NCBI RefSeq assembly: GCF_003334315.1
Contig: NZ_QOWR01000003.1
Reading direction: 5' to 3' (one strand)
Source: Escherichia coli
Lineage (GTDB): Bacteria; Pseudomonadota; Gammaproteobacteria; Enterobacterales; Enterobacteriaceae
DNA length: 64,000 nt
Under the pieces are notes generated by a model that was given only the letters and a program-made list of their open reading frames with translations, did not search any database and was not told where the DNA came from. The position numbers were made by a program, and so were the translations under genes. The number at the start of each line of letters is the position of its first letter. The stretch's first letter is position 1. Shown here piece after piece: positions 55,979 to 59,180 of the stretch.

Positions 55979-56650
55979 GTGGATAAGGTTTTAGATTCAG
56001 CCCTCCTTTCTTCGGCAAATAAAAGAAAGGGTATCCTTGCTATTGGCGCACATCCTGACGATATAGAATTAGGCTGTGGCGCATCGCTTGCTCGTCTTGC
56101 GCAAAAAGGAATTTATATCGCAGCCGTGGTGATGACTACCGGCAACTCTGGCACAGATGGAATAATCGATCGCCATGAAGAATCGCGCAACGCCCTAAAG
56201 ATATTAGGGTGCCACCAAACTATTCATCTTAATTTTGCTGACACCCGCGCTCATTTACAGCTCAATGATATGATTTACGCCCTGGAAGACATCATTAAAA
56301 ATCAAATTCCTTCTGATGTTGAAATCATGCGGGTATATACCATGCATGATGCCGACCGCCATCAGGATCATCTCGCTGTTTATCAAGCTTCAATGGTTGC
56401 CTGCCGAACTATTCCACAAATTCTCGGCTACGAAACCCCAAGCACCTGGCTTTCATTTATGCCTCAGGTTTTTGAATCCGTTAAAGAAGAATATTTCACA
56501 GTCAAACTTGCTGCATTAAAAAAACATAAAAGCCAGGAACGACGCGATTATATGCGTCATGATCGCCTGCGTGCAGTTGCACAATTTCGCGGGCAACAGG
56601 TCAATAGCGATCTGGGTGAAGGCTTTGTAATTCATAAAATGATTCTTTGA
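55979..56650 (+). CDS. yaiS: PIG-L/LmbE-family N-acetylglucosaminyl deacetylase YaiS
   Basis: 223-aa ORF from GTG 55979 with GGAG 9 nt upstream; AIGAHPDDIELGCG motif typical of PIG-L deacetylases; TATAAT at 55951-55956. Annotated start in K-12 may be further downstream. Confidence 0.85.
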   Translation: MDKVLDSALLSSANKRKGILAIGAHPDDIELGCGASLARLAQKGIYIAAVVMTTGNSGTDGIIDRHEESRNALKILGCHQTIHLNFADTRAHLQLNDMIYALEDIIKNQIPSDVEIMRVYTMHDADRHQDHLAVYQASMVACRTIPQILGYETPSTWLSFMPQVFESVKEEYFTVKLAALKKHKSQERRDYMRHDRLRAVAQFRGQQVNSDLGEGFVIHKMIL

Positions 56651-56659
56651 GCAAATTAC

Positions 56660-57846
56660 ATGAAAACCTGGATATTTATCTGTATGTCCATAGCAATGTT
56701 GCTATGGTTTTTAAGTACGCTAAGACGTAAACCCAGTCAAAAGAAAGGCTGTATTGACGCCATTATACCTGCGTATAACGAAGGCCCGTGTCTGGCGCAG
56801 TCACTGGATAATCTACTGCGTAACCCTTATTTTTGCCGGGTAATTTGCGTTAACGACGGCTCCACGGACAATACCGAAGCGGTCATGGCGGAAGTCAAAC
56901 GCAAATGGGGCGACCGCTTTGTTGCCGTCACACAAAAAAATACCGGTAAAGGTGGTGCGCTGATGAATGGCCTCAATTACGCCACCTGCGACCAGGTTTT
57001 TTTAAGTGATGCCGACACCTATGTTCCGCCCGATCAAGACGGAATGGGCTATATGCTGGCAGAAATTGAGCGCGGTGCAGATGCCGTAGGCGGCATTCCC
57101 TCTACTGCGTTGAAAGGCGCGGGTCTGTTACCGCGACCGTAAAGTTGCCGATGATTGTTATGAAGCGCACGCTACAGCAGCTCCTGGGCGGCGCACCGTT
57201 TATTATCAGCGGTGCCTGCGGGATGTTCCGTACTGATGTATTGCGTAAGTTCGGCTTCTCGGATCGTACTAAAGTCGAAGACCTTGATCTCACCTGGACA
57301 TTAGTGGCAAACGGCTACCGTATTCGGCAGGCGAATCGCTGCATCGTATACCCACAGGAATGCAACAGTCCGCGTGAGGAGTGGCGTCGCTGGCGGCGTT
57401 GGATTGTGGGCTACGCGGTCTGTATGCGCCTGCATAAAAGGCTTTTATTTAGCCGCTTCGGTATCTTCAGTATATTTCCTATGCTGTTGGTTGTGATTTA
57501 TGGCGTTGGGATTTATCTCACTACCTGGTTTAATGAATTCATCACCACCGGGCCGCATGGTGTGGTGTTGGCAATGTTTCCGCTTATCTGGATCGGCGTA
57601 GTTTGTGTTATTGGTGCTTTTAGCGCCTGGTTTCATCGTTGCTGGTTGTTGGTGCCTTTAGCGCCGCTTTCCGTTGTGTATGTATTATTAGCTTATGCCA
57701 TCTGGATTATTTATGGACTTATTGCCTTTTTTACTGGACGCGAACCTCAGCGCGACAAACCCACCCGCTATTCCGCACTGGTGGAAGCGTCAACCGCTTA
57801 TTCCCAACCTTCTGTCACAGGAACTGAAAAACTATCTGAAGCTTAA
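56660..57846 (+). pseudogene. yaiP: Family 2 glycosyltransferase YaiP with reading-frame break (two ORF pieces 56660..57142 and 57145..57846)
   Basis: N-piece 160 aa: N-terminal TM helix, GT2 core IIPAYNEGP...VICVNDGSTDNT...FLSDADT; C-piece 233 aa in a different frame: RRWRRW motif and about 4 TM helices; frames overlap 57070-57142, consistent with a 1-nt indel relative to an intact gene of about 395 aa. Confidence 0.6.
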
Positions 57847-58405
57847 TGTTAAAGAGAAAAATATTCAGATTGCAGACCAGGTAATTATTGATGAAACTGC
57901 AGGTGAAGTTGTTATCGGCGCGAATACCCGTATTTGTCATGGTGCCGTTATTCAGGGTCCGGTAGTGATTGGCGCAAACTGCCTGATAGGTAATTATGCG
58001 TTTATTCGTCCTGGCACAATAATCAGCAATGGTGTAAAAATTGGTTTTGCCACCGAAATTAAAAATGCGGTTATTGAAGCGGAAGCAACGATTGGTCCGC
58101 AATGTTTTATTGCCGACTCGGTAGTTGCAAACCAGGCATATTTGGGCGCACAAGTACGTACCAGTAATCATCGTCTGGATGAACAGCCTGTGTCTGTTCG
58201 AACTCCAGAGGGAATTATCGCTACCGGATGCGATAAATTAGGTTGTTATATCGGGCAGCGTTCACGCCTTGGCGTACAAGTTATAATTTTGCCTGGGCGA
58301 ATTATTTCCCCGAACACGCAACTTGGCCCGCGCGTGATTGTAGAACGTAATTTACCTGCCGGAACTTATTCACTCCGACAAGAACTTATCCGTACAGGAG
58401 ATTAA
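57695..58405 (+). CDS. yaiX: Hexapeptide-repeat (left-handed beta-helix) acyltransferase YaiX; start codon uncertain
   Basis: 236-aa ORF with tandem [LIV]-G-x4 hexapeptide repeats (VIGANT, VIGANC, LIGNYA, KIGFAT, TIGPQC, YLGAQV); the first in-frame canonical starts (57695, 57713) overlap yaiP 3' end. Confidence 0.75.
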   Translation: MPSGLFMDLLPFLLDANLSATNPPAIPHWWKRQPLIPNLLSQELKNYLKLNVKEKNIQIADQVIIDETAGEVVIGANTRICHGAVIQGPVVIGANCLIGNYAFIRPGTIISNGVKIGFATEIKNAVIEAEATIGPQCFIADSVVANQAYLGAQVRTSNHRLDEQPVSVRTPEGIIATGCDKLGCYIGQRSRLGVQVIILPGRIISPNTQLGPRVIVERNLPAGTYSLRQELIRTGD

Positions 58406-58406
58406 A

Positions 58407-59180
58407 ATGATAAAACGGACGTTATTAGCGGCGGCCATTTTTAGCGCATTGCCCGCTTATGCCGGGTTAACCTCCATTACCGCGGGCTACGATTTTACCG
58501 ATTATTCTGGCGATCATGGCAACCGTAATTTAGCGTATGCTGAACTGGTGGCGAAAGTTGAAAACGCAACGCTGCTTTTTAATCTTTCCCAGGGGCGTCG
58601 TGATTATGAAACTGAACATTTCAATGCCACTCGCGGTCAGGGTGCGGTCTGGTATAAATGGAATAACTGGCTGACAACCCGAACGGGTATTGCCTTTGCG
58701 GATAATACGCCGGTCTTTGCCCGCCAGGATTTTCGTCAGGATATTAACCTGGCCCTGTTGCCAAAAACGCTTTTCACGACCGGTTATCGCTACACTAAAT
58801 ATTACGATGATGTCGAAGTCGATGCCTGGCAAGGCGGCGTATCACTCTATACTGGCCCGGTGATCACCAGCTACCGCTATACCCATTATGACTCCAGCGA
58901 TGCAGGTGGTAGTTATAGCAATATGATTTCCGTGCGTCTGAATGACCCGCGCGGCACTGGTTATACGCAACTATGGCTAAGCCGCGGAACAGGCGCTTAC
59001 ACCTATGACTGGACGCCAGAAACACGCTACGGCAGCATGAAGAGCGTCAGTCTGCAACGTATTCAACCGCTGACTGAGCAACTTAATCTCGGGCTGACGG
59101 CAGGTAAAGTGTGGTACGACACCCCAACCGATGATTATAACGGTCTGCAACTTGCAGCCCATCTGACCTGGAAATTCTGA
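58407..59180 (+). CDS. yaiO: Outer membrane beta-barrel protein YaiO
   Basis: 257-aa ORF, signal peptide MIKRTLLAAAIFSALPAYA, alternating aromatic/Tyr-rich strands, C-terminal ...AAHLTWKF; starts 1 nt after yaiX stop. Confidence 0.9.
   Translation: MIKRTLLAAAIFSALPAYAGLTSITAGYDFTDYSGDHGNRNLAYAELVAKVENATLLFNLSQGRRDYETEHFNATRGQGAVWYKWNNWLTTRTGIAFADNTPVFARQDFRQDINLALLPKTLFTTGYRYTKYYDDVEVDAWQGGVSLYTGPVITSYRYTHYDSSDAGGSYSNMISVRLNDPRGTGYTQLWLSRGTGAYTYDWTPETRYGSMKSVSLQRIQPLTEQLNLGLTAGKVWYDTPTDDYNGLQLAAHLTWKF

Follow-up and report, generated by a model that had tools for sequence, protein, structure and literature searches.

The yaiS-yaiP-yaiX-yaiO genes of Escherichia coli: a mobile four-gene cassette resembling a minimal synthase-dependent surface-glycan system

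The genes yaiS, yaiP, yaiX and yaiO of Escherichia coli form a compact group of four, examined here in a window of 64,000 nucleotides (NCBI RefSeq assembly GCF_003334315.1, contig NZ_QOWR01000003.1; positions are those of the window unless another locus is named). Judged from its sequence, the group is a rare, patchily distributed, selectively maintained and horizontally mobile unit. It is real, conserved and uncharacterised in peer-reviewed work, and was partly anticipated by a meeting abstract. On balance, we favour the view that it constitutes a self-contained mobile cassette for a synthase-dependent amino-sugar glycan promoting aggregation. The copy in the window should itself be an inactive pseudo-operon: a private deletion of 10 bp cuts short the synthase encoded by yaiP.

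The evidence for a unit comes primarily from its relatives. A scan with conserved YaiP peptides across 100,044 species, each represented by a single genome, returned 17 loci, a lower bound since the scan needs two exact YaiP peptide patterns; the E. coli representative genome is not among them. The hosts are Escherichia whittamii, Citrobacter, Superficieibacter, Ignatzschineria, Lysobacter, Stenotrophomonas, Acinetobacter, Pseudomonas viridiflava and alphaproteobacterial metagenome-assembled genomes. In all 17 loci, genes for a PIG-L deacetylase (YaiS), a family 2 glycosyltransferase (GT2; YaiP), a left-handed beta-helix protein (LbH; YaiX) and YaiO follow one another in this order within approximately 3.2 kb, as they do in every metagenome locus of judgeable length, and every YaiO relative on a sufficiently long contig ends this series, down to 26–30% YaiO identity. 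The flanks are unrelated between genera (hemB adjoins the cassette in Citrobacter, and in Acinetobacter the cassette stands after rpoBC), and no fifth gene recurs across the loci compared. Conservation is highest for YaiP (52–97%), followed by YaiX, YaiS and YaiO (26–97%). All four genes are under purifying selection, the ratio of non-synonymous to synonymous substitution rates (dN/dS) per gene being 0.03–0.29 and mostly at most 0.15 when E. coli is compared with E. whittamii, with Citrobacter or with a second E. coli copy. The kept gene order, the unrelated flanks and the low dN/dS together therefore indicate a mobile cassette and not a chance neighbourhood. An earlier, sequence-only reading of this DNA had proposed one functional four-gene module of horizontal origin: the occurrence across taxa, with an order identical in all relatives, bears out the module, and the rare and patchy distribution fits the proposed origin.

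Within E. coli, coverage of the region reaches 80% or more in 4,278 of the 5,426 genomes that are complete (approx. 79%) and falls short of this in approximately 21%; O157:H7 keeps of it only the frmR promoter. Because the ‘incomplete’ flags set on yaiS by the NCBI annotation pipeline (PGAP) are artefacts, the open reading frame (ORF) being open over 223 codons in the flagged genomes, gene integrity was scored from the DNA. All four ORFs are open in eight of 12 sampled genomes, one of these having lost 12 nt from yaiO without a change of frame. The four damaged genomes are K-12, one genome with a frameshift in yaiX, one with a frameshift in yaiP and one with the insertion sequence IS1 between yaiS and yaiP. 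In K-12, a CAG to TAG change at 56534 (Q186*) leaves 185 residues of YaiS and removes its conserved last 38, a segment holding 11 invariant residues, and yaiX carries IS2 at approximately 57993. These lesions are independent and sporadic, and a conditionally useful, poorly expressed cassette therefore fits better than wholesale decay.

Outside the window, E. coli AVS0717 carries a second cassette that is intact throughout (locus L002, 7944–11150), on an island beside cobU/cobS that also carries ibrA/ibrB-like genes, a TonB-dependent receptor and insertion sequence remnants. The yaiS region of this copy is present at at least 99% identity in 840 of the 5,426 complete genomes (approx. 15%). Between the two E. 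coli copies (L002 versus L001), yaiS has a synonymous divergence (dS) of approximately 2.1 (approx. 70% nucleotide identity), as against 0.10–0.22 (94–96%) for yaiP, yaiX and yaiO; likewise, two strains (L024 and L025) share 91% identity in yaiS and 97–99% in the other cassette genes. This mosaic divergence suggests recombination or gene conversion inside the cassette.

In the window, yaiP had been read as a single intact gene of an intact operon, which turned out to be wrong. The loss of 10 bp (CGCACATCCG), flanked by CGC microhomology (short repeats), shifts the frame and brings in a premature stop codon at 57140–57142. In the same set of 5,426 genomes, none spans a 54-bp probe across the deletion junction, and 1,554 match this probe just to the breakpoint. 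The exact 160-residue truncated YaiP is found on 20 contigs in a large protein collection; the deletion allele is therefore real and confined to a minor lineage. Since the half of YaiP with the DxD motif and the half with the acceptor site and membrane helices are now separate, the synthase should be inactive. The domain and structure results for YaiP given below use an intact allele.

Hidden Markov model searches upheld all four domain assignments made previously: a PIG-L/LmbE-type sugar deacetylase with the motif AIGAHPDDIELGCG, which is present as quoted; a membrane-embedded GT2 with a DxD-type core and C-terminal membrane helices; a hexapeptide-repeat acyltransferase; and an outer-membrane beta-barrel with a signal peptide and a final WKF. 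YaiS matches PIG-L (PF02585) at 1.8e-24 and carries the metal motifs AHPDD and HQDH; in an alignment of seven sequences DRHQDH is invariant, and AHPDD is absent solely from one N-terminally short gene call. Its closest solved relatives are a diacetylchitobiose deacetylase (5e-12), then BshB/LmbE proteins, and it reaches no specific equivalog cut-off among BshB1, MshB and Mca. A GGAG ribosome-binding sequence stands upstream of the gene.

YaiP (398 residues; one N-terminal and approximately three C-terminal membrane helices) matches Glycos_transf_2 (PF00535) at 7e-28 and PF13632 at 7e-11. Its top curated family is PgaC/IcaA (TIGR03937; 7e-29), with 101 bits against a cut-off of 422 and over residues 23–286 only. 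The structural model (predicted local distance difference test, pLDDT, 83; predicted template modelling score 0.81) has an N-terminal membrane helix, a glycosyltransferase A-fold (GT-A) domain, a helix at 241–261 with the stretch EEWRRWRRW and three long C-terminal helices, and matches hyaluronan and cellulose synthases over approximately 340 residues, far better than GT2s acting on lipid carriers. Across 38 orthologues D66, D70, D117, D119, E210 and D211 are invariant, as are E244, W245, R247, W248, R250, W251 and G254 of the interface helix and a C-terminal loop, E-P-x-R-D-K-P-x-R. The putative QxxRW motif of processive synthases, noted earlier in this helix, reads RWRRW: R247-W-R-R-W251-x-x-G254 appears to correspond to QRxRW-xxG of BcsA/PgaC, R standing where Q is expected. 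When the PDB is searched with YaiP, by sequence or by profile, the matches reach only the N-terminal GT-A half, never hyaluronan synthase (HAS) or BcsA, so that this placement rests on the pattern and the predicted helix position.

YaiX matches Hexapep/LbH at 6e-10, Hexapep at 3.3e-9 and the archaeal GlmU family (Arch_glmU, TIGR03992) at 1.8e-37, below its cut-off. Its top solved relative, at 7e-23, is ST0452 residues 241–398, a glucosamine-1-phosphate/galactosamine-1-phosphate N-acetyltransferase domain. No signal peptide and no hydrophobic N-terminus is present in YaiS, in YaiX or in any of their aligned homologues, and both proteins should therefore be cytoplasmic.

YaiO matches its own family (TIGR04390) with 184.3 bits against a cut-off of 32 and over positions 1–230 of 230 of the profile, and PF19413 at 4.7e-26. 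Its signal peptide comprises residues 1–19, ending AYA|G. The AlphaFold2 model (pLDDT 94) is a barrel of 14 strands with short loops and an N-terminal helix (residues 6–14), and has no plug, periplasmic or tetratricopeptide repeat (TPR) domain. Single-sequence phmmer searches among 1.84 billion representatives gave 118 clusters at 50% identity; all relatives are stand-alone proteins of approximately 255–285 residues, none fused to a TPR domain. No solved structure matches YaiO at the sequence level.

From these assignments we infer a mechanism, including its N-acetylglucosamine-type substrate and the extrusion of the chain. With its HAS/cellulose-synthase fold, YaiP would take up a nucleotide-activated sugar on the cytoplasmic side, probably one of the N-acetylglucosamine type, polymerise it and thread the growing chain through the inner membrane. 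YaiS, as a zinc de-N-acetylase, and YaiX, as an acyltransferase, would modify the amino sugar at its N-acyl group in the cytoplasm, before or during the entry of the sugar into the synthase: YaiS would strip the N-acetyl group, and YaiX would put an acyl group there or elsewhere. Being cytoplasmic, both would have to act ahead of translocation, and their target may be the donor, a primer or the non-reducing end, as with LpxC/LpxD or with NodB and NodA/L. The plug-less 14-stranded barrel of YaiO would let the product pass the outer membrane, and this product would drive cell–cell aggregation. Behind an AT-rich leader bound by H-NS, the E. coli cassette is probably poorly expressed.

The aggregation part of this reading finds an echo in the record. 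According to a 2011 meeting abstract, as relayed by EcoGene 3.0 (PMC3531124), repair of the IS2-disrupted yaiX of K-12 caused clumping during growth, for which YaiP was required. The earlier statement that these genes have no assigned product is slightly outdated in view of this YaiP-dependent clumping. Searches of the literature brought up no homologue characterised under a different name; the papers on these genes cited here name no product, nor does any of them discuss the four together as a system for a glycan.

Several observations weigh against the proposed glycan cassette. No product has ever been identified, and the clumping is known solely from the meeting abstract, in the form in which EcoGene transmits it. 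In that experiment K-12 clumped with a YaiS lacking its last 38 residues, and YaiS may therefore be dispensable for clumping. The small size of YaiP and its few membrane helices place a self-sufficient translocation channel in doubt, and R appears where the Q of QxxRW belongs, as mapped from pattern and helix. Next to a deacetylase, an N-acetyltransferase-like enzyme would run a futile cycle, unless the acyl donor or the position that YaiX uses is a different one. In the HMMER alignment with ST0452, His308, presumably catalytic like His363 of GlmU, faces the P of an invariant GPQC in YaiX (P/Q at this position), and Asn331 aligns with the invariant N of SNHRLD; YaiX is, on this alignment, not a plain GlmU-type enzyme. 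Lastly, no cyclic di-GMP element or riboswitch turned up, and scanning the leader and the operon against Rfam gave no relevant match.

The main rival is a pathway resembling that of Nod factors, in which YaiP would make short chito-oligosaccharides, YaiS would de-N-acetylate the terminal residue and YaiX would re-acylate or acetylate it, the product leaving via YaiO to be diffusible or periplasmic. The length and helix number of YaiP suit this reading (we take its size to be NodC-like), and NodC is among its NCBIfam matches. Both modifying enzymes would be cytoplasmic, as are NodB, NodA and NodL; the top solved relative of YaiS works on the non-reducing end of chitobiose; and CymA and OmpG, to which YaiO is closest in structure, are channels for oligosaccharides. 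However, the NodC model (TIGR04242) gives YaiP only 29.3 bits over residues 25–125, for a cut-off of 550, when PgaC/IcaA gives 101; no NodA, no NodB of carbohydrate esterase family 4 (CE4) and no NodIJ-type exporter lies in or beside any cassette; and clumping, as the abstract is quoted, suits a cell-associated polymer. We consequently regard short oligosaccharides as an unlikely product. The two remaining readings are weaker.

One of them holds that the E. coli locus is a remnant, a silenced and decaying island acquired horizontally, without present function, whose genes are linked by history alone. That independent lesions have accumulated (the 10-bp deletion in the window, a nonsense codon and IS2 in K-12, two frameshifts and IS1 in three of the 12 sampled genomes), that approximately 21% of complete genomes, O157:H7 included, fall below 80% coverage of the locus, that H-NS binds the leader (PMC3946193) and that yaiX lacks a clear start codon or Shine–Dalgarno sequence (PMC13058169) would all accord with such a fate. 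It is nevertheless improbable in view of the four ORFs open in most sampled E. coli, the low dN/dS of all four genes, a gene order invariant across orders of Proteobacteria and the retention of the yaiS region of a second copy in hundreds of genomes.

The other, modification of a lipid carrier in the manner of ArnC/ArnD or GtrB, is very improbable: YaiP would load one amino sugar on undecaprenyl phosphate, YaiS and YaiX would edit its N-acyl group, and lipopolysaccharide or another envelope glycan would be decorated. It would leave YaiO without a role, no flippase or ArnT/GtrC-type periplasmic transferase accompanies the cassette in any genome examined, and YaiP has the interface-helix xRW and the conserved C-terminal loop that lipid-carrier GT2s seem to lack. 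In its favour, sequence searches relate YaiP in its N-terminal GT2 half to solved chains of ArnC, GtrB and DPMS (1e-7 to 1e-10), and the Arn pathway likewise pairs a GT2 with a de-acylase. Finally, synthesis of a mycothiol- or bacillithiol-type thiol was rejected, since such pathways use soluble family 4 glycosyltransferases (GT4) and the scores lie far below cut-offs.

In the window, the tauCBA genes on the minus strand are followed by the cassette and by frmRAB on the plus strand (table 1). The coordinates in the sequence-only description of the locus were exact: four co-directional genes, with a gap of 9 nt between yaiS and yaiP, a yaiX ORF whose start overlaps the end of yaiP and a gap of 1 nt between yaiX and yaiO, preceded by an AT-rich leader of just the length tabulated. 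The operon is also, as proposed, more AT-rich than its flanks, with a G+C content of 47.7% versus 51.1% for the window, 56–58.5% for tauABC and 54% for frmA. This AT-richness is modest and not extreme (13th percentile among 3.2-kb windows) and stems mainly from yaiS and yaiX (44% G+C; 33–37% at third codon positions), yaiP and yaiO having approximately 50%. A further AT-rich trough (32% G+C) lies at 50400–50800, approximately 5 kb upstream of the tau genes.

Table 1. Features of the yaiS-yaiP-yaiX-yaiO locus, in window positions.
Feature	Position	Strand	Description
tauA-yaiS divergent intergenic region	55364..55978		615 bp, G+C 30.4%
tauA promoter-like site	55627..55654	-	TTGAGA-16-TACAAT; promoter scan
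yaiS promoter-like site (sigma-70)	55730..55759	+	TTGACA-18-TACAAT, 11/12 matches; promoter scan
yaiS	55979..56650	+	PIG-L/LmbE-type zinc de-N-acetylase, 223 residues, GTG start, intact here
ykiC	56516..56635	-	39-codon ORF antisense within the yaiS 3' end; intact here, one substitution versus K-12 (S15P)
yaiP, 5' fragment	56660..57142	+	N-terminal membrane helix and GT2 nucleotide-binding half (DGSTD, DADT); stops after 160 codons
yaiP, deletion site	57131..57132	+	10 bp lost; alignment with three intact E. coli copies
yaiP, 3' part	57132..57846	+	other frame; SGACGMF acceptor site, VED catalytic motif, EEWRRWRRW interface helix, three C-terminal membrane helices, conserved REPxRDKPTRY tail
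yaiX ORF	57695..58405	+	left-handed beta-helix (hexapeptide) acyltransferase, like the archaeal GlmU C-terminal domain, intact here
yaiO	58407..59180	+	outer-membrane beta-barrel, 257 residues; strong AGGAG Shine–Dalgarno sequence 6 nt upstream
Hairpin after yaiO	59189..59210	+	G+C-rich, directly after the gene, possible weak terminator; without T-run, folding z-score -1.3, not significant

Both predicted promoter sites in the leader carry the same hexamers as the constitutive RpoD promoters reported for yaiS and tauA from genomic SELEX (systematic evolution of ligands by exponential enrichment), a study that also places an H-NS site in the spacer (PMC3946193). Promoter and terminator scans of the sequence gave counts not above those of shuffled sequence. 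In K-12, the tauA–yaiS spacer has been described as an H-NS-associated ‘promoter island’, a class linked to foreign genes (PMC3661553). The silencing suggested earlier for the operon fits both the published H-NS binding and the promoter-island leader.

Initiation of yaiX is peculiar. Candidate starts are ATG at 57695, ATG at 57713 or CTG at 57824, the latter being the PGAP choice for the E. coli copy L001; the conserved domain begins at approximately 57850. The only ATGs lie 132–150 nt inside yaiP, and PGAP chooses various CTGs. No canonical start codon is found near the start of the homologues (MWW.../MRQ...) within 57695–57850, nor is there an evident Shine–Dalgarno sequence. A 2026 paper overexpresses the 71-residue YaiX pseudogene fragment of K-12, gives the protein 236 residues in other strains, likewise reports no Shine–Dalgarno sequence and does not address the operon (PMC13058169). 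Within yaiS, the antisense ykiC has been detected as a protein in K-12 (PMC6001520), and its annotation probably causes the ‘incomplete’ label that PGAP sets on intact yaiS.

Downstream of yaiO, the spacer to frmR contains a poly-C tract at 59227–59234, with eight C here, nine in LR-06 and ten in K-12. A near-perfect 20-bp inverted repeat (ATACTATAGGGGGGTATGC ... GCATACCCCCCTATAGTAT) at 59287–59341, presumably the FrmR operator, flanks the frmR promoter (TTGACA-17-TAGTAT, 59311–59339). The Rfam matches obtained were limited to spurious microRNA ones on this palindrome. In other hosts (relatives L004, L005, L013 and L015), genes for response regulators or GerE/LuxR-type proteins adjoin the cassette in several distant cases, and an MvaT/H-NS-like gene does so in a Pseudomonas-like contig. 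No adjoining regulator gene is kept across genera among the relatives compared, and these regulators are possibly host-specific.

The well-defined biofilm polysaccharides of E. coli are few: cellulose, poly-N-acetylglucosamine (PNAG) and colanic acid. If the proposed glycan cassette is what it seems, it would join these as a fourth, self-contained and carried by most E. coli strains, and would be an unstudied aggregation factor; the stop codon in yaiS and IS2 in yaiX would then explain why the laboratory strain K-12 lacks the phenotype. It would also indicate to what minimum size a system for synthase-dependent export can be reduced, and offer a case in which the N-acyl group of a sugar is edited at the cytoplasmic face of a processive synthase. 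A practical consequence concerns yaiO, a widely used ‘E. coli-specific orphan’ marker for PCR. The gene is presented as an expressed, outer-membrane-located orphan and an E. coli PCR marker absent from O157:H7 (cited in PMC4453288). It is nonetheless part of a mobile cassette found also in Citrobacter, Salmonella, Yersinia, Stenotrophomonas, Acinetobacter and Pseudomonas.

Compared with known systems, the cassette resembles synthase-dependent exopolysaccharide systems yet belongs to none of the Pga/Ica, Bcs and Nod types. The parallel with PGA and cellulose systems drawn earlier is sound for the shared logic; it does not extend to the parts, as YaiS and YaiX are without signal peptides, unlike PgaB, IcaB or the acetylation machinery of alginate and cellulose, PgaD, PilZ and BcsB have no counterpart, and YaiO has no TPR. 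With HAS and BcsA, YaiP shares the D, DxD and ED motifs, the C-terminal membrane helices and, apparently, the xRW of the interface helix, and by analogy with HAS a single polypeptide would both polymerise and translocate. YaiP is, however, far shorter than these enzymes (approx. 560–870 residues), has fewer membrane helices and an identity of 14–16% to them, and reads RWRRW instead of QxxRW; as for BcsABC, its synthase bears a PilZ domain and is accompanied by BcsB and by the TPR porin BcsC, all three being absent here.

PgaABCD and IcaADBC likewise combine a synthase, a de-N-acetylase, an acyl-modifying enzyme (IcaC) and a channel in the outer membrane; among curated families PgaC/IcaA scores best for YaiP, and aggregation is the phenotype attributed to the cassette in the relayed abstract. 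The differences are that the deacetylase of the cassette is a cytoplasmic PIG-L protein and not a secreted CE4 enzyme (PgaB/IcaB), and its acyltransferase a soluble beta-helix and not a membrane protein; YaiP stays below the TIGR03937 cut-off, and neither a PgaD/IcaD partner nor a 16-stranded TPR porin such as PgaA is encoded. The Nod system resembles the cassette in its small membrane GT2, its cytoplasmic deacetylation of an amino sugar and its cytoplasmic acyl or acetyl transfer by a hexapeptide enzyme (NodL), and differs in having a CE4 deacetylase in place of PIG-L, in NodA, and in export through the NodIJ ATP-binding cassette transporter where the cassette would use an outer-membrane barrel. 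As to the polyprenyl-phosphate GT2s (ArnC, GtrB, DPMS), YaiP neither reaches their equivalog scores nor matches their fold with the C-terminal helices included.

CymA and OmpG are 14-stranded monomeric sugar channels, and YaiO is modelled as a plug-less barrel of the same strand number. It differs from them by an identity of 6–11%, by very short loops and by being always encoded with a biosynthetic cassette and not with an uptake operon. The order of cytoplasmic events envisaged, in which a zinc deacetylase frees the amine of a glucosamine derivative for the next enzyme, recalls LpxC/LpxD and the MshB/BshB pathways; YaiS shares the PIG-L fold of MshB/BshB and YaiX the beta-helix of LpxD/GlmU. 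Here the differences lie in scores far below cut-offs, in a membrane GT2 instead of a soluble GT4 and in the presence of an outer-membrane channel in the cassette. Taken with these comparisons, the cassette may, as a tentative and more specific proposal for which the odds are somewhat unfavourable, represent a minimal synthase-dependent secretion system of an undescribed type, a mobile unit of 3.2 kb that would combine a HAS/PgaC-like synthase, N-acyl editing in the cytoplasm and a 14-stranded outer-membrane channel of its own without TPR, and whose product would be a new N-acyl-modified adhesin of the polyglucosamine type.

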